Below are positions 13,877-51,233 of a stretch of DNA of 64,000 bases, piece by piece. This stretch comes from Escherichia coli (lineage in GTDB: Bacteria > Pseudomonadota > Gammaproteobacteria > Enterobacterales > Enterobacteriaceae). The notes beneath the pieces are model-generated. The model was not told where the DNA came from, ran no database searches, and was given only the letters and a program-made list of their open reading frames with translations. The stretch is from the NCBI RefSeq assembly GCF_002854065.1, contig NZ_CP024147.1. One strand, 5' to 3'. Numbering within the stretch: position 1 is the first letter of the stretch; every line of letters starts with the position of its first letter. A program made the position numbers and the translations under genes.

Positions 13877-14064
13877 TGACCATCAGCGATATCATTGAAA
13901 TTATTGTCGTTTGCGCACTGATATTTTTCCCGCTGGGCTATCTGGCGCGGCACTCTTTGCGACGCATTCGCGACACCTTACGTTTGTTCTTTGCTAAACC
14001 TCGTTATGTTAAACCGGCTGGGACGTTACGCCGCACGGAAAAAGCCAGGGCAACCAAAAAATGA
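13873..14064 (+). CDS. bcsF: Small membrane protein BcsF
   Basis: 63-aa ORF with one hydrophobic helix ([18 protein letters not shown]); ATGA overlap with bcsE, and its stop overlaps the bcsG start. Confidence 0.85.
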
Positions 14065-15740
14065 CTCAATTTACGCAAAATACCGCCATGCCTTCTTCCC
14101 TCTGGCAATACTGGCGCGGCCTTTCCGGCTGGAACTTCTATTTTCTGGTTAAGTTCGGCCTGTTGTGGGCGGGATATCTTAACTTCCATCCGCTCCTCAA
14201 TTTGGTGTTTGCCGCGTTTCTGCTGATGCCCATTCCGCGCTACAGCCTGCATCGCTTGCGCCACTGGATTGCCCTGCCGATCGGCTTTGCTTTGTTCTGG
14301 CATGACACCTGGTTGCCTGGCCCGGAAAGCATAATGAGCCAGGGTTCGCAGGTGGCGGGGTTCAGTACCGATTATTTAATCGACCTTGTCACACGCTTTA
14401 TTAACTGGCAGATGATTGGGGCCATTTTTGTTTTATTAGTGGCCTGGTTATTCTTGTCACAATGGATTCGCATTACCGTTTTTGTGGTTGCCATACTGCT
14501 ATGGCTGAACGTACTTACCCTGGCGGGACCAAGTTTCTCCTTGTGGCCAGCCGGTCAACCGACGACCACTGTAACAACGACGGGTGGTAACGCAGCGGCA
14601 ACCGTTGCGGCGACGGGTGGCGCACCGGTAGTGGGTGATATGCCCGCACAAACTGCACCGCCAACAACGGCGAACCTTAACGCCTGGCTGAATAATTTCT
14701 ATAACGCGGAGGCGAAACGTAAATCGATCTTCCCGTCTTCGCTGCCCGCTGATGCTCAGCCATTTGAACTACTGGTGATTAATATCTGTTCGCTTTCCTG
14801 GTCGGATATAGAAGCCGCCGGGTTGATGTCGCATCCGCTGTGGTCGCATTTCGATATTGAGTTCAAGAACTTTAACTCCGCCACCTCCTACAGTGGCCCG
14901 GCAGCGATCCGTTTACTGCGCGCCAGCTGCGGGCAGACTTCGCACACTAATCTGTATCAACCGGCAAATAACGACTGCTATCTGTTTGATAACCTGTCGA
15001 AACTGGGCTTTACCCAGCACCTGATGATGGGATATAACGGCCAGTTCGGCGGTTTTTTGAAAGAAGTTCGCGAAAATGGCGGCATGCAGACTGAATTGAT
15101 GGATCAAACAAATCTGCCGGTTATTTTGCTGGGCTTTGATGGTTCGCCGGTTTATGACGATACCGCCGTGCTTAACCGCTGGCTGGACGTTACCGAAAAA
15201 GATAAAAACAGCCGTAGTGCCACGTTCTACAACACGCTTCCACTGCATGACGGCAACCATTATCCGGGCGTCAGCAAAACAGCGGATTACAAAGCGCGGG
15301 CGCAGAAATTCTTTGATGAACTGGACGCCTTCTTTACTGAACTGGAGAAATCGGGTCGTAAAGTGATGGTGGTCGTGGTGCCGGAACACGGCGGCGCGCT
15401 GAAGGGCGACAGAATGCAGGTATCTGGCCTACGTGATATCCCTAGCCCGTCTATCACCGACGTCCCCGTTGGGGTGAAATTCTTCGGCATGAAGGCACCA
15501 CATCAGGGGGCACCGATTGTCATCGACCAACCGAGCAGCTTCCTGGCTATCTCCGATCTGGTGGTTCGCGTTCTTGATGGCAAGATTTTCACCGAAGATA
15601 ATGTTGACTGGAAAAAACTCACCAGTGGGTTGCCACAAACAGCACCGGTCTCCGAGAACTCAAATGCAGTAGTTATTCAATACCAGGATAAACCGTACGT
15701 TCGCCTGAACGGCGGCGACTGGGTGCCTTACCCGCAGTAA
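14061..15740 (+). CDS. bcsG: Cellulose phosphoethanolamine transferase BcsG
   Basis: 559-aa ORF with N-terminal membrane helices and a C-terminal alkaline-phosphatase-like domain; ends 2 bp before the first ldr repeat unit. Confidence 0.9.
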
Positions 15741-15744
15741 GCAC

Positions 15745-15776
15745 GAAAAAGGCCGCAGAGTTTCACCCCTGCGGCC
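15745..15776 (-). terminator. Rho-independent terminator hairpin of ldr copy 1; also abuts the bcsG 3' end
   Basis: Palindrome ggccgcag-N10-ctgcggcc at 15751-15776, with an A-run on the plus strand (a U-run on the minus-strand transcript). Confidence 0.6.
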
Positions 15777-15826
15777 TGGTCCGGGCGCAAATTGCCATTA
15801 CGGCAGCCTGACGCCCGCATGACACG

Positions 15827-15934
15827 TTACTTCCGCTTGTTCAGCCAGTTCACGATCATACTGGCAAGAATGCCAGCAATGACCGGAGTCGCTAAATCAT
15901 GCCAGAAGGCCATGCCCAGTTCTGCGAGCGTCAT
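15827..15934 (-). CDS. ldrD: Ldr-family type I toxin peptide (35 aa), copy 1
   Basis: MTLAELGMAFWHDLATPVIAGILASMIVNWLNKRK; the 80-aa track ORF 15827..16069 is an upstream extension of this 35-aa peptide. Confidence 0.8.
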   Translation of the reverse strand: MTLAELGMAFWHDLATPVIAGILASMIVNWLNKRK

Positions 15935-15984
15935 ATAGCCGCCTGTGTTGTAATGACAACGTTTCGCGGCTATTCTTGAATGGT

Positions 15985-16050
15985 CTAGGTTCAAGATTAG
16001 CCCCCGTGGTGTTGTCAGGTGCATACCTGCAACGTGCGGGGGTTTTCTCT
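15985..16050 (+). ncRNA. rdlD: Rdl-type antisense RNA partner of ldr copy 1 (coordinates approximate)
   Basis: Placed from the recalled LDR architecture (about 66 nt, antisense to the ldr 5' leader, starting about 50 nt beyond the ldr start codon); no ends were mapped from the sequence. Confidence 0.3.
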
Positions 16051-16309
16051 CTCCAGCAACCAATGCCACCAGGGATTAAGCCCCCGCAACATTGCGCATC
16101 ACCGGAATCCTTCCGGCTTATCGCTGATTCTACGACTGTTTTTCTGTTCCGGAATCCGTCACGTCTTCACTCTGTGCTGCGCATTCCGCAGAATATTATC
16201 CGCTTGCAATCGTTGCATTTTTCTTACGAAAAAGGCCGCAGAGTTTCACCCCTGCGGCCTGGTCCGGGCGCAAATTGCCATTACGGCAGCCTGACGCCCG
16301 CATGACACG

Positions 16310-16417
16310 TTACTTCCGCTTGTTCAGCCAGTTCACGATCATACTGGCAAGAATGCCAGCAATGACCGGAGCCGCTAAATCATGCCAGAAGGCCATGCCC
16401 AGTTCTGCGAGCGTCAT
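16310..16417 (-). CDS. Ldr-family type I toxin peptide (35 aa), copy 2
   Basis: MTLAELGMAFWHDLAAPVIAGILASMIVNWLNKRK; differs from copy 1 by one residue (A16 versus T16). Confidence 0.8.
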   Translation of the reverse strand: MTLAELGMAFWHDLAAPVIAGILASMIVNWLNKRK

Positions 16418-16467
16418 ATAGCCGCCTGTGTTGTAATGACAACGTTTCGCGGCTATTCTTGAATGGT

Positions 16468-16533
16468 CTAGGTTCAAGATTAGCCCCCGTGGTGTTGTCA
16501 GGTGCATACCTGCAACGTGCGGGGGTTTTCTCT
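16468..16533 (+). ncRNA. Rdl-type antisense RNA partner of ldr copy 2 (coordinates approximate)
   Basis: Same reasoning as for copy 1, shifted by the 483-bp repeat period. Confidence 0.3.
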
Positions 16534-16892
16534 CTCCAGCAACCAATGCCACCAGGGATTAAGCCCCCGCAACATTGCGCCTCACCGGAACCCTTCCGGC
16601 TTGCCGCTAATTTTACGATTGCTTTTTACTGTCAGCACTCGGCAATCTTCCTCATTGCGTGATGCCTTCCAGCTTAATTTCTTAATTTGCAATAGTTGCA
16701 GTTCATATCCGGGCTGACTCCAGACTGGTAGTGAAATGCGCAATTTTGTAGAATTGCGCCTCCTCGCGACCTCCCCAGTGAATCTGTTGCCTCATTTTTT
16801 ACATACTGCGTATTCGACTTCTCCACCTGTTGCGCAAGAGAAACTGGGTTTATTCATTTTTGCGAGGCCGACTTCTTTCTGGACAGGACTTT

Positions 16893-18164
16893 ATGCAGCA
16901 CAACACACTACCGAAACACGATCAGAAATTGCCGTTTACACGCTACGACTTCGGCTGGGTTTTATTATGCATAGGCATGGCGATTGGTGCCGGAACCGTA
17001 CTGATGCCAGTACAAATTGGCTTGAAGGGAATTTGGGTATTTATTACCGCAGCGATCATTGCTTATCCTGCCACCTGGGTAGTGCAGGACATTTATTTAA
17101 AAACCCTTTCTGAAAGCGATTCCTGTAATGACTACACCGATATTATCAGTCATTACCTGGGGAAGAACTGGGGAATTTTCCTCGGGGTTATCTACTTTTT
17201 GATGATTATCCACGGGATTTTTATCTACTCTCTCTCCGTGGTTTTCGACAGCGCCTCGTACCTGAAAACCTTCGGTTTAACCGATGCCGATCTTTCACAA
17301 TCTCTACTTTATAAAGTCGCTATTTTCGCCGTACTGGTAGCGATTGCGTCTGGTGGTGAACGATTACTGTTTAAGATTTCTGGGCCAATGGTGGTGGTCA
17401 AAGTAGGGATTATTGTCGTGTTCGGTTTTGCGATGATCCCGCACTGGAATTTCGCCAATATAACCGCCTTCCCGCAAGCCTCCGTCTTTTTCCGCGATGT
17501 CCTGCTTACCATTCCATTTTGCTTCTTTTCTGCAGTATTTATTCAGGTACTTAACCCAATGAATATTGCCTATCGTAAACGGGAAGCGGATAAAGTACTG
17601 GCAACCCGGCTCGCGCTGCGTACCCACCGAATTAGTTATATCACGCTCATCGCGGTGATACTGTTTTTTGCCTTTTCGTTTACCTTCTCAATTAGCCACG
17701 AAGAAGCCGTTTCTGCCTTTGAACAAAATATCTCGGCACTGGCACTGGCCGCGCAGGTGATCCCTGGGCATATCATTCATATCACCTCTACGGTGCTGAA
17801 TATCTTTGCCGTACTGACCGCATTCTTTGGCATTTATCTCGGTTTCCACGAGGCCATTAAAGGCATTATTCTCAATCTGTTAAGCCGAATTATTGATACC
17901 AAGAAAATTAACTCACGCATGCTGACTCTGGCGATCTGCGCTTTTATCGTCATTACGTTGACGATTTGGGTTTCGTTTCGTGTATCGGTGCTGGTGTTCT
18001 TTCAGTTGGGAAGCCCATTATATGGCATTGTGTCGTGCCTCATTCCGTTTTTCCTGATCTATAAAGTCGCACAACTGGAAAAACTTCGCGGATTTAAAGC
18101 CTGGCTGATTCTGCTTTACGGCATTTTGCTATGCTTGTCGCCACTGTTGAAGCTGATTGAGTAA
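16893..18164 (+). CDS. yhjV: Inner-membrane transporter YhjV (HAAAP family, hydroxy/aromatic amino acid permease-like)
   Basis: ORF 16830..18164; start trimmed to [25 protein letters not shown] (423 aa) with GGA-rich RBS upstream; polytopic membrane protein. Confidence 0.85.
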
Positions 18165-31086: not shown

Positions 31087-31229
31087 TGAGCTATTTCTCC
31101 TGAAAAGATATTAATCAATCAACATTTTTAGTGATCATTTCCGCTGACGATCCAAAGTCATTGATGGCGTTATAGGTGATGCTGCCAACTTACTGATTTA
31201 GTGTATGATGGTGTTTTTGAGGTGCTCCA

Positions 31230-31505
31230 GTGGCTTCTGTTTCTATCAGCTGTCCCTCCTGTTCAGCTACTGACGGGGTGGTGCGTAACGGCAAAAGCAC
31301 TGCCGGACATCAGCGCTATCTCTGCTCTCACTGCCGTAAAACATGGCAACTGCAGTTCACTTACACCGCTTCTCAACCCGGTACGCACCAGAAAATCATT
31401 GATATGGCCATGAATGGCGTTGGATGCCGGGCAACCGCCCGCATTATGGGCGTTGGCCTCAACACGATTTTCCGCCATTTAAAAAACTCAGGCCGCAGTC
31501 GGTAA
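31230..31505 (+). CDS. insA: IS1 InsA (DNA-binding regulator/repressor)
   Basis: 91-aa [43 protein letters not shown]... (zinc-finger-like Cys pairs). Confidence 0.9.
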
Positions 31506-31927
31506 CCTCGCGCATACAGCCGGGCAGTGACGTCATCGTCTGCGCGGAAATGGACGAACAGTGGGGATACGTCGGGGCTAAATCGCGCCAGCGCTGGCTG
31601 TTTTACGCGTATGACAGGCTCCGGAAGACGGTTGTTGCGCACGTATTCGGTGAACGCACTATGGCGACGCTGGGGCGTCTTATGAGCCTGCTGTCACCCT
31701 TTGACGTGGTGATATGGATGACGGATGGCTGGCCGCTGTATGAATCCCGCCTGAAGGGAAAGCTGCACGTAATCAGCAAGCGATATACGCAGCGAATTGA
31801 GCGGCATAACCTGAATCTGAGGCAGCACCTGGCACGGCTGGGACGGAAGTCGCTGTCGTTCTCAAAATCGGTGGAGCTGCATGACAAAGTCATCGGGCAT
31901 TATCTGAACATAAAACACTATCAATAA
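31424..31927 (+). CDS. insB: IS1 InsB (transposase is made as an InsAB' fusion by -1 frameshift)
   Basis: 167-aa ORF in the -1 frame relative to insA, as in canonical IS1. Confidence 0.85.
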
Positions 31928-32515
31928 GTTGGAGTCATTACCGGCGTTATATTTAATTTTAGAAACGCTACCTACCCCGGCGGGTAATGTGATATTTAAT
32001 GCCCCTTTAGCGGGTACCATGCCTGCTTTTTCAATTTCTTTGTCATTCGCAAAAAATTGATTAAAGGTAATATTAAAAACTGTCGGATTATCAACGCGGA
32101 GCTGATTACCGTTACGCGTAAATCGCAGTTCATTTGGCGCGGTTTTTACATCACCCTTTAAACCTGCCGGGCGATAAAAAAGTTTGATTCGGGTGCGAAC
32201 GGCAATCTGCAAAACATTTTTGTTTTCGCTGTCGTCACTTTTAGATGGAATGGCTTTCACATTAACCCAGTAGACCGATTCGCGATCCTGAGGCAGGCCG
32301 GGCGTAATATTCACAATACGCAAAATATTGTTCTTTTCTGGATCAAGCTTGAATAGTGGGGGCGTAATAATAAACGGTGTTTTTTTGCTGCCCGCGGCAT
32401 CATCCACCCAGGATTGGATAAGAAACTCTTCCGTCTTACTTTTATTCTGTACGGTCAGCGGGTGATGCTGCCAACTTACTGATTTAGTGTATGATGGTGT
32501 TTTTGAGGTGCTCCA

Positions 32516-32791
32516 GTGGCTTCTGTTTCTATCAGCTGTCCCTCCTGTTCAGCTACTGACGGGGTGGTGCGTAACGGCAAAAGCACCGCCGGACATCAGC
32601 GCTATCTCTGCTCTCACTGCCGTAAAACATGGCAACTGCAGTTCACTTACACCGCTTCTCAACCCGGTACGCACCAGAAAATCATTGATATGGCCATGAA
32701 TGGCGTTGGATGCCGGGCAACTGCCCGCATTATGGGCGTTGGCCTCAACACGATTTTACGTCACTTAAAAAACTCAGGCCGCAGTCGGTAA
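32516..32791 (+). CDS. insA: IS1 InsA, copy B
   Basis: 91-aa ORF; one substitution relative to copy A (NTILRHL versus NTIFRHL). Confidence 0.9.
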
Positions 32792-33213
32792 CCTCGCGCA
32801 TACAGCCGGGCAGTGACGTCATCGTCTGCGCGGAAATGGACGAACAGTGGGGCTATGTCGGGGCTAAATCGCGCCAGCGCTGGCTGTTTTACGCGTATGA
32901 CAGTCTCCGGAAGACGGTTGTTGCGCACGTATTCGGTGAACGCACTATGGCGACGCTGGGGCGTCTTATGAGCCTGCTGTCACCCTTTGACGTGGTGATA
33001 TGGATGACGGATGGCTGGCCGCTGTATGAATCCCGCCTGAAGGGAAAGCTGCACGTAATCAGCAAGCGATATACGCAGCGAATTGAGCGGCATAACCTGA
33101 ATCTGAGGCAGCACCTGGCACGGCTGGGACGGAAGTCGCTGTCGTTCTCAAAATCGGTGGAGCTGCATGACAAAGTCATCGGGCATTATCTGAACATAAA
33201 ACACTATCAATAA
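32710..33213 (+). CDS. insB: IS1 InsB, copy B
   Basis: 167-aa ORF; differs from copy A at several residues (MPGNCPHY...DFTSLKK...YDSLRK versus MPGNRPHY...DFPPFKK...YDRLRK). Confidence 0.85.
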
Positions 33214-47867: not shown

Positions 47868-48863
47868 ATGCAGCCCAAAATTTACTGGATTGATAACCTG
47901 CGAGGGATAGCGTGTTTAATGGTGGTGATGATTCACACCACTACCTGGTATGTGACCAATGCTCATAGTGTTAGCCCCGTCACCTGGGATATCGCCAATG
48001 TTCTGAACTCTGCCTCTCGTGTCAGCGTGCCGCTATTTTTCATGATTTCCGGCTATCTCTTTTTTGGCGAACGCAGCGCCCAGCCGCGCCATTTCTTGCG
48101 TATCGGCTTATGTCTGTTTTTTTATAGCGCAATCGCGCTGCTCTACATTGCACTGTTTACCTCCATTAATGTGGAGTTAGCGCTGAAAAACCTGCTGCAA
48201 AAGCCAGTGTTTTACCACTTATGGTTTTTCTTCGCGATTGCGGTGATTTATCTGGTTTCACCGCTGATTCAGGTGAAGAACGTCGGCGGAAAAATGTTGC
48301 TGGTGCTAATGGTGGTGATTGGTATCATCGCTAACCCAAACACCGTGCCGCAGAAAATCGACGGTTTTGAATGGCTGCCAATTAACTTATATATCAATGG
48401 CGATACTTTTTACTACATTCTGTATGGCATGTTGGGCCGCGCTTTAGGGATGATGGACACACAGCATAAAGCACTGTCGTGGGTGAGCGCCGCACTGTTT
48501 GCGACGGGAGTTTTTATTATCTCTCGCGGGACATTATATGAATTGCAGTGGCGCGGAAATTTTGCCGATACCTGGTATCTTTACTGTGGGCCGATGGTTT
48601 TTATCTGCGCAATCGCGCTATTGACTCTGGTTAAAAACACGCTGGATACGCGTACCATTCGCGGACTTGGCTTAATCTCCCGCCATTCGTTGGGTATATA
48701 CGGATTCCACGCCTTGATTATCCATGCGCTGCGCACCCGGGGAATTGAGCTTAAAAATTGGCCAATACTGGATATTATTTGGATTTTTTGCGCGACGTTG
48801 GCAGCGAGTTTGTTACTTTCTATGCTGGTACAACGAATCGACAGAAACAGATTAGTGAGTTAA
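47868..48863 (+). CDS. wecH: O-acetyltransferase WecH (acyltransferase-3 family membrane protein)
   Basis: 331-aa polytopic [28 protein letters not shown].... Confidence 0.85.
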
Positions 48864-48866
48864 GTA

Positions 48867-48897
48867 AAAGCCCGGTCACATTGGACTGACCGGGCTT
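48867..48897. terminator. Hairpin between convergent wecH and yiaA (terminator-like, best fit for the minus strand)
   Basis: aagcccggtca-cattggac-tgaccgggctt; a U-run follows on the minus-strand transcript. Confidence 0.5.
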
Positions 48898-49421
48898 ACG
48901 TGAGTTATTCGCTGTATTCTTCCTGGGTAACCTGTGTTTCTTTTGGTGGGTTTATTCCGGCATCACGAATATTTTTCTGCACCGCTACTGCACCAAACAA
49001 GCTTAAGAAGAAAGCCAGTCCATAAAAACCTTTTTCGCTGAGTAATAATGTCGCATTCCACAGACCTACCATCAGTAATGCAACAGAGATAATAAAGACA
49101 GTCAGGCAGGTCATATAATAAATGGAAGTGGTCGGTATGCCTTCATACTTGTCCCGAACAGTCTTTTGATAAGACGCCGCAGAAAACAGTCCTAATACCA
49201 GTACGGCAAAATAATATCCTTTTTCATTTAACTGCATCTCTGCATTCCATAGCCCTAACAGATAGGTAACGATACCACCAACGAGAGCTATCCATGACAC
49301 AATACTAAAGGCCGGTGAATAGGTTGATATTAGACTGGCCCCCTGAATCTCCAGACAACCAATATCACTTAAATAAGTGATAGTCTTAATACTAGTTTTT
49401 AGACTAGTCATTGGAGAACAG

Positions 49422-49787
49422 ATGATTGATGTCTTAGGGCCGGAGAAACGCAGACGGCGTACCACACAGGAAAAGATCGCAATTGTTCAGCAGAGCTTTG
49501 AACCGGGGATGACGGTCTCCCTCGTTGCCCGGCAACATGGTGTAGCAGCCAGCCAGTTATTTCTCTGGCGTAAGCAATACCAGGAAGGAAGTCTTACTGC
49601 TGTCGCCGCCGGAGAACAGGTTGTTCCTGCCTCTGAACTTGCTGCCGCCATGAAGCAGATTAAAGAACTCCAGCGCCTGCTCGGCAAGAAAACGATGGAA
49701 AATGAACTCCTCAAAGAAGCCGTTGAATATGGACGGGCAAAAAAGTGGATAGCGCACGCGCCCTTATTGCCCGGGGATGGGGAGTAA
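49422..49787 (+). CDS. insC: IS2 OrfA (InsC), HTH transposase N-terminal component
   Basis: 121-aa frame from [41 protein letters not shown]...; the track ORF starts 45 nt earlier at an upstream ATG. Confidence 0.9.
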
Positions 49788-50650
49788 GCTTAGTCAGCCG
49801 TTGTCTCCGGGTGTCGCGTGCGCAGTTGCACGTCATTCTCAGACGAACCGATGACTGGATGGATGGCCGCCGCAGTCGTCACACTGATGATACGGATGTG
49901 CTTCTCCGTATACACCATGTTATCGGAGAGCTGCCCACGTATGGTTATCGTCGGGTATGGGCGCTGCTTCGCAGACAGGCAGAACTTGATGGTATGCCTG
50001 CGATCAATGCCAAACGTGTTTACCGGATCATGCGCCAGAATGCGCTGTTGCTTGAGCGAAAACCTGCTGTACCGCCATCGAAACGGGCACATACAGGCAG
50101 AGTGGCCGTGAAAGAAAGCAATCAGCGATGGTGCTCTGACGGGTTCGAGTTCTGCTGTGATAACGGAGAGAGACTGCGTGTCACGTTCGCGCTGGACTGC
50201 TGTGATCGTGAGGCACTGCACTGGGCGGTCACTACCGGCGGCTTCAACAGTGAAACAGTACAGGACGTCATGCTGGGAGCGGTGGAACGCCGCTTCGGCA
50301 ACGATCTTCCGTCGTCTCCAGTGGAGTGGCTGACGGATAATGGTTCATGCTACCGGGCTAATGAAACACGCCAGTTCGCCCGGATGTTGGGACTTGAACC
50401 GAAGAACACGGCGGTGCGGAGTCCGGAGAGTAACGGAATAGCAGAGAGCTTCGTGAAAACGATAAAGCGTGACTACATCAGTATCATGCCCAAACCAGAC
50501 GGGTTAACGGCAGCAAAGAACCTTGCAGAGGCGTTCGAGCATTATAACGAATGGCATCCGCATAGTGCGCTGGGTTATCGCTCGCCACGGGAATATCTGC
50601 GGCAGCGGGCTTGTAATGGGTTAAGTGATAACAGATGTCTGGAAATATAG
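49745..50650 (+). CDS. insD: IS2 OrfB (InsD), DDE integrase-fold transposase component (fused to OrfA by -1 frameshift)
   Basis: 301-aa [26 protein letters not shown]... overlapping the insC 3' end in the -1 frame. Confidence 0.9.
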
Positions 50651-50723
50651 GGGCAAATCCAGATATTTTGTTGTCCATCACAGTATTCCTTTCATTCCTG
50701 AATGTGTAAGAGCTTTATATTGC

Positions 50724-51065
50724 TCATACCGAGCGAAACAAACGCATTTGACCAAACAAGCAGACAAAAAAGGCGATGGGGTAGATCACCATTTCATAAG
50801 CATTGATAGGTGCATTTAAAACACCGATAAACAAGAGACCGATAGTGATTAACGCAACTAACTGGCAAATATGGGTAAAAAAATTATCCAGTTGCCCGCG
50901 TTTTTCTGCGCGAAGATATGCATAGTTGCCAAAAGTTGCTGTCATTAACACGCCAAGAAAATAGCCTTTTCCACTCAACAATGGGCATGAGATCCATAGC
51001 CCAACCAGATAAACCAGCGCCCCGACAACAAATAATAGTTTTGCCACAGTTTTTGAGGTTTTCAT
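50724..51065 (-). CDS. yiaB: Inner-membrane protein YiaB (paralog of YiaA)
   Basis: ORF 50724..51107; start trimmed to MKTSKTVAKLLFVVGALVYLVGLWISCPLL (113 aa); same two-helix-hairpin pattern as the yiaA product. Confidence 0.8.
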   Translation of the reverse strand: MKTSKTVAKLLFVVGALVYLVGLWISCPLLSGKGYFLGVLMTATFGNYAYLRAEKRGQLDNFFTHICQLVALITIGLLFIGVLNAPINAYEMVIYPIAFFVCLFGQMRLFRSV

Positions 51066-51233
51066 AACGATCTCCATATCTACCAGCGATACATTACGAG
51101 TAACCAACGAAAGACAAAACTGAAAAATGCCATTAACAAATGATTTTCAGAATAAATTCATACTAAATATTAATTAATTACTGAGATATATAGATGTGAA
51201 TTATCCCCCACCCGGTCAGGCAGGGGATAACGT

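Follow-up and report, generated by a model that had tools for sequence, protein, structure and literature searches.

The yiaA gene of Escherichia coli, which encodes a small membrane protein with no known function, is found interrupted by an IS2 element in the 64-kb stretch of DNA analysed here (hereafter the window). The locus raises the question of whether the insertion is genuine, what it leaves of yiaA and of the expression of the neighbouring genes, and whether IS2 reached this place once or uses it repeatedly.

The element had been identified in a sequence-only reading of the window as a 1331-bp IS2 with intact orfA and orfB (insC and insD), and both its boundaries and its coding content proved to be exact. 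Alignment to the copy annotated as 'insertion sequence:IS2A' in E. coli K-12 MG1655 gave 1330 identical bases out of 1331, the two copies differing by 1 base, and the InsC and InsD proteins are identical to K-12 InsC1 and InsD1. Copies that are 100% identical to the one in the window are present in ETEC6, CUVET16-819, CUVET19-1426 and PCN061, where the NCBI automatic annotation (PGAP) records the IS2-family transposase as intact and as made by programmed frameshift; in the window, the slippery motif of the -1 frameshift, A6G (AAAAAAG), is located at 49739-49745. The first bases of the element are TAGACTGGCC (its left-end sequence, as read from 49331, is TAGACTGGCCCC) and its last bases, up to 50661, are GGGGCAAATCCA. 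The detected arms of its inverted repeats are 79% complementary, and its termini are those of the reference (Table 1). No other IS2 copy is found within the 64 kb.

As a member of the IS3 family, IS2 transposes by a copy-out/paste-in process via a minicircle intermediate. Judging from its intact ends and reading frames, the copy in yiaA would be transposition-competent. The MG1655 IS2A element, located in yaiX, shares with it the 42/41-bp imperfect inverted repeats, insC and insD, the A6G motif and the 5-bp duplication, and likewise splits a non-essential gene into two pieces, the insertion site being the only difference between the two cases. Regarding transcription signals, the left inverted repeat (IRL) of IS2 contains the weak transposase promoter P_IRL (PMC3299598), while the right inverted repeat (IRR) carries an outward-facing -35 box that is used in the minicircle junction promoter (PMC9330008, PMC3299598).

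Table 1. Positions in the window of the features of the interrupted yiaA locus, and neighbouring target sites of IS2-type elements in other strains.
Feature	Position	Strand	Basis or remark
Hairpin and U-tract, terminator-like, directly 3' of yiaA stop	48861-48896	-	Fold dG -21.2 kcal/mol, z -4.92
yiaA 3' remainder: 139 native codons plus duplicated codons 5-6, stop	48905-49330	-	Reconstruction equals K-12 YiaA
Open frame, IS2 IRL region into yiaA remainder	48905-49465	-	Starts GTG 49465 (186 aa), ATG 49411 (168 aa)
Target duplication, left copy, GATAT	49326-49330		Sequence and empty-site reconstruction
IS2, complete, 1331 bp	49331-50661	+	Identity to MG1655 IS2A and four genomes
IRL, 42 bp	49331-49372	+	Arm detected at 49340-49372; length per PMC3299598
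insC (orfA), 121 aa, helix-turn-helix	49422-49787	+	Pfam HTH_Tnp_1, E 1.8e-19
insD (orfB), 301 aa, DDE integrase core	49745-50650	+	Pfam rve and rve_3
IRR, 41 bp	50621-50661	+	Arm detected at 50621-50653; length per PMC3299598; faces yiaA stub and yiaB, antisense
Target duplication, right copy, GATAT	50662-50666		Sequence and empty-site reconstruction
yiaA 5' stub: start, codons 2-5, two bases of codon 6	50662-50678	-	Read from sequence
yiaB, paralogue, 113 aa, intact, separate transcription unit	50724-51065	-	CUWW06 match; Pfam YiaAB; PMC10127797
Other insertion, duplication GGTTG	49322-49326		CP61_Sichuan, 2017.10.01CC; in CP61_Sichuan 4 bp off the window site, same orientation
Other insertion, duplication ATATT			SX4, SX48; 1 bp off the window site, inverted
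Other insertion, duplication ACAGT	50680-50684		Just upstream of yiaA ATG; once per orientation (Br_167_kylling, RM10410)

The perfect 5-bp target duplication that had been claimed, GATAT, is present on both sides of the element. An empty site was provided by CUWW06, the closest complete genome (100% identity across 94% of a 23-kb query), in which the wecH-yiaA-yiaB-xylB locus is uninterrupted and yiaA is annotated as intact. After removal of IS2 and one GATAT, the window showed 0 mismatches over 4,664 bp against CUWW06. The same excision restores the N-terminus of YiaA as it had been proposed, in a 145-aa protein that has the same sequence as K-12 b3562 and WP_001296808.1; standard YiaA does begin with MDNKIS, and neither the IS2 ends nor the duplicated 5-mer departs from the reference. 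The exact empty site far exceeds a chance repeat of a 5-mer (1 in 1,024).

Searches for the same allele elsewhere returned no match: the two window junctions gave 0 single-piece matches in 5,426 complete RefSeq E. coli genomes, and the left junction gave 0 matches in JGI metagenome contigs and 0 in the GTDB species-representative genomes. An allele that is matched in no other public sequence searched, in a class of elements that is commonly misassembled, could in principle come from an IS2 repeat put in the wrong place by the assembler. Target duplications, however, are not produced by misassembly, and the full-length element, its exact termini, the perfect 5-bp duplication and the base-perfect empty site in the sister strain CUWW06 make an artefact of this kind extremely improbable. 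A genuine transposition being retained, the insertion would be recent, because its flanks are identical to those of CUWW06. Further insertions, of IS1 and IS5, set the window and CUWW06 apart, and IS movement in this lineage therefore appears to be recent and ongoing.

The lpf fimbrial operon was noted to contain a directly oriented pair of IS1 copies (31175-31942 and 32461-33228) with 98.96% identity. The first, with GGCGTTATA at its flanks, is common to the window and CUWW06; the second, located in lpfB with the 9-bp duplication CGGTCAGCG, has no counterpart in CUWW06. The window, for its part, lacks a further IS1 and an IS5 in yhjY that are present in CUWW06. Elsewhere, a segment of about 405 bp is duplicated in tandem with 97.5% identity (15743-16147 and 16226-16632), in the interval from the ORF at 14061-15740 to the ORF at 16830-18164.

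As for the gene itself, the placement of IS2 after codon 6 of yiaA, with six codons cut from the other 139, was borne out by the sequence and by the reconstruction. On the minus strand, yiaA starts with the ATG at 50678-50676 and reads ATG GAC AAC AAA ATA TC before entering IS2. The break therefore falls inside codon 6, between TC and A, and codon 6 of the stub still encodes serine solely through the first base of IS2, which turns it into TCT. The stub retains the promoter and the ribosome-binding site of the gene, on the IRR side, and the native start now opens a 64-aa ORF that runs into IS2 in antisense and ends at 50484 according to the ORF list. On the IRL side, the 3' remainder stays in frame to the stop at 48905 and has neither a promoter nor a start codon of its own, while both YiaAB two-helix domains are intact downstream of the break (Pfam YiaAB, E 6e-40, two stretches). 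The reconstructed ORF fits YiaA of the PF05360 YiaA/YiaB inner membrane protein family, as it equals the reference YiaA and holds two YiaAB domains.

By parting the promoter, the ribosome-binding site and six codons from the 139-codon body, the insertion would leave the native expression signals of yiaA to drive a 64-aa nonsense ORF into the antisense strand of IS2, and would leave the body without expression signals. Consequently to such a separation, yiaA::IS2 would most likely behave as a null allele. A polar effect on other genes would not be expected, since yiaA and yiaB have been reported as separate transcription units (PMC10127797) and the unit of yiaA has no downstream gene.

The presumed loss of YiaA has to be weighed against the possibility that its body is still made as a chimera starting in the left end of IS2, for instance at ATG 49411 (168 aa), with both membrane domains kept. 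Both YiaAB domains do lie 3' of the break and the frame is uninterrupted from IS2 to codon 5 of yiaA, so that a low-level product can be envisaged, and PGAP labels analogous IS-initiated ORFs as 'inner membrane protein YiaA' in TUM24567, CP61_Sichuan and SX4. These calls, however, represent a homology-driven choice of start and not evidence of expression. A Shine-Dalgarno sequence is absent before both ATG 49411 and GTG 49465, a consensus scan gave no promoter-like site facing out of IRL, the outward -35 box described for IS2 sits in IRR, at the opposite end (PMC9330008), and transcription in the required direction would oppose the inward transposase promoter P_IRL. With this balance, production of a chimeric YiaA is regarded as quite improbable and a null allele as the preferred reading. 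Exact look-ups of the 168-aa and 186-aa chimeric forms in public gene calls returned no match. PGAP start codons placed inside an IS2 end for a disrupted yiaA were noted in WP_426472938.1, WP_086589615.1 and WP_258146677.1; the PGAP 'YiaA' chimera calls are probably annotation artefacts that conceal disruptions.

Regarding the neighbouring genes, the paralogue yiaB had been described as intact and as lying just downstream of yiaA. The first part holds, with 0 mismatches to CUWW06, whereas the second does not, yiaB being upstream of yiaA by the direction of transcription. YiaB shares 31% identity with YiaA, and a compensation of yiaA loss by yiaB can be put forward as speculation. A terminator-like hairpin with a T-run, as a consensus match only, was also seen within the 3' coding end of yiaB on the minus strand (50772-50790), about 46 nt before the stop; it adjoins several of the IS2 insertion sites found in other genomes (50748-50780).

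It had also been suggested that IS2 could drive transcription of the yiaA 3' piece, or of wecH in antisense. Neither suggestion found support, as the -35-bearing IRR faces away from the 3' piece, the consensus promoter scan detected nothing promoter-like directed out of either end of IS2, and a hairpin terminator separates yiaA from wecH. This hairpin lies between the two genes, which are convergent, and consists of a 10-bp G+C-rich stem followed by UUUUACUU; it was missed by the terminator scan. With a stable hairpin following the yiaA stop, read-through into wecH is therefore unlikely.

The closest known precedent for activation is the ampC fusion promoter created by IS2 (Jaurin and Normark 1983, as cited in PMC9330008), where an end of the same element lends its -35 box to a flanking -10 box. 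Unlike in the ampC case, the -35-bearing end points away from the gene body in yiaA::IS2 and the flanking -10 is weak and mis-spaced, so no activation is expected. On the other side of the element, the outward -35 box of IRR that serves the minicircle junction and ampC fusion promoters meets a flank offering TATTTT at 18-bp spacing, and a fusion promoter made of IRR and flank (TGGAAA, 18 nt, TATTTT) might drive an antisense RNA over the yiaA stub and yiaB and thereby alter yiaB expression. This arrangement, however, matches only 8 of 12 consensus positions with a non-optimal spacing, which places it below the threshold of the scan, whereas the IS2 junction promoter reportedly requires a spacer of exactly 17 bp (PMC3299598); moreover, there is no further plus-strand gene for 3.7 kb. 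An effect on yiaB through this route is accordingly held to be improbable, and the insertion is taken to act on yiaA without activating its surroundings.

While the window allele itself was matched in no other genome, it was of interest to establish whether IS2 occurs elsewhere at this locus. Among 5,426 complete E. coli genomes, 77 have an IS2-type element within about 1.7 kb of yiaA-yiaB, 53 in the orientation of the window and 24 more in the inverted one. When the flanks from 25 representatives were placed on the empty site, 21 distinct insertions emerged, that of the window included, of which 19 fall within 745 bp of uninterrupted sequence (49025-49330 plus 50667-51105). The other yiaA/yiaB::IS2 alleles each have their own 5-bp duplication and are therefore independent events, so that at least 20 independent insertions of IS2-type elements exist besides that of the window, in both orientations, several of them 1-20 bp from the window site (Table 1). 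Two insertion sites were each used twice. One cluster comprises 49322-49330 and 50667-50684. A second cluster, at 49261-49291, accounts for six events, and one site in it was used by two different IS2 variants (strains E3 and O22:H8 154). Among the other strains with IS2 at yiaA/yiaB are the TUM strains, ETEC6 and PSS-15. In the TUM strains and in CV601, two different insertions are found on flanks identical to those of MG1655, which itself has no IS2 at yiaA-yiaB; the source of the TUM strains is recorded as 'Laboratory developed' and CV601 is recorded as the parent of strain T159A, a derivative made in the laboratory. An apparent orientation bias, the first 13 mapped insertions (the window's included) all being oriented as in the window, was rejected: the search had joined same-strand pieces only, and an inverted query recovered the 24 further genomes.

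Several of the yiaA-yiaB insertions are IS2 variants 95.6-98% identical to the window copy. At least two such variants, one with about 95.6-95.9% and one with about 97-98% identity to canonical IS2, insert in yiaA-yiaB (transposases WP_089541817.1 and WP_102384962.1). An IS2 copy was also noted in the 5' end of wecH, with the duplication GATAG (window positions 47906-47910), and secondary events are associated with it: N25 has an IS4 inside the wecH IS2, in 23CRST038 a second IS3-family element lies in the 3' part of yiaA, and in MS 196-1 the left flank of the wecH IS2 is replaced by a TniQ-family gene.

The frequency of these insertions was compared with that at control positions by means of three 80-nt queries, in which AT-rich, non-essential flanks from the window were fused to the IS2 left end. 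True matches numbered 0, 0 and 0 for the control flanks versus 15 genomes for the yiaA flank, the counts being rough because the genomes are phylogenetically non-independent, the control regions are three and some group members were assigned to sites by group. The collection holds roughly 16,000 chromosomal IS2 left ends and, therefore, about 1 genome would be expected per 540 bp and orientation. The G+C content of the yiaA-yiaB segment is 36-42% versus 53-58% in the neighbouring genes. The duplicated 5-mers show a weak G-(A/C)-T-A-(T/G) tendency; a target consensus was tried and discarded, only a weak G at position 1 (9/14), a T at position 3 and an A at position 4 of the duplication being discernible, with no usable motif.

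Two causes of this recurrence were considered, the first being selection for the loss of yiaA or yiaB, in which case the window insertion would be an adaptive knockout. Many independent disruptions across lineages and hosts are consistent with such a selection, and most insertions do disrupt or uncouple one or other of the two genes. In 61 genomes, however, the 200 bp surrounding the window site are split, and about 55 of these genomes carry an IS2-type element there (some assigned by group), though E. coli has many other active IS families; this proportion would point to IS2-specific targeting and not to a general selection against yiaA. Furthermore, the insertion points lie within a few bp of one another, identical sites having been used again in either orientation, some of them are intergenic, and two arose on MG1655-identical flanks, while a regional preference of IS2 is already documented (PMC3299598). 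Selection for yiaA/yiaB loss is consequently judged unlikely. The second cause, a target preference of the element itself, agrees with the published behaviour of IS2, whose insertion is non-random and regional with no strict consensus and for which a link to intrinsic DNA curvature has been proposed (PMC3299598). IS2's known structure-dependent target preference would explain the recurrence, and it is this preference, not selection against yiaA, that we infer as its probable cause.

Hot targets of IS2 have been published for a region of phage P1 (Sengstag et al. 1983), for hemB (Lewis et al. 1994) and for nfsB (Whiteway et al. 1998), as these are cited in PMC3299598. They show regional clustering without strict consensus, as at yiaA-yiaB; the difference is that the P1, hemB and nfsB targets were defined by experiment, whereas the yiaA-yiaB target is deduced from natural and laboratory genomes. 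A literature search for yiaA-yiaB as an IS2 target found no paper on it, the matches being IS26 and similar word matches. IS2-type elements appear to use the AT-rich yiaA-yiaB segment as a regional hot target throughout E. coli. That these roughly 0.75 kb represent a natural hot target not reported before and particular to IS2-type elements, reached by at least 20 separate events in both orientations and sometimes at the identical base, is considered more likely than not.

Taken together, the locus is with high confidence explained by a recent insertion of IS2 into codon 6 of yiaA, with the usual 5-bp duplication, within a segment apparently preferred by IS2 and with yiaA likely null as a result. 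The yiaA::IS2 allele is in this respect an ordinary, recent and presumed knockout by a textbook mobile element. Being specific to the strain represented by the window, it is of use mainly for marking the lineage and for showing that IS elements are still moving in it. The annotation of IS-initiated chimeras as intact 'YiaA' hides disruptions of this kind from gene-content surveys. For IS2 itself, yiaA-yiaB seems to add a new case to the regional target preference already known, and the recurrence of insertions there constitutes a ready natural data set on the target choice of the element; if the hot target is true, yiaA-yiaB could serve as a chromosomal model of how the transpososomes of IS2 and the IS3 family are targeted by DNA shape rather than by sequence.
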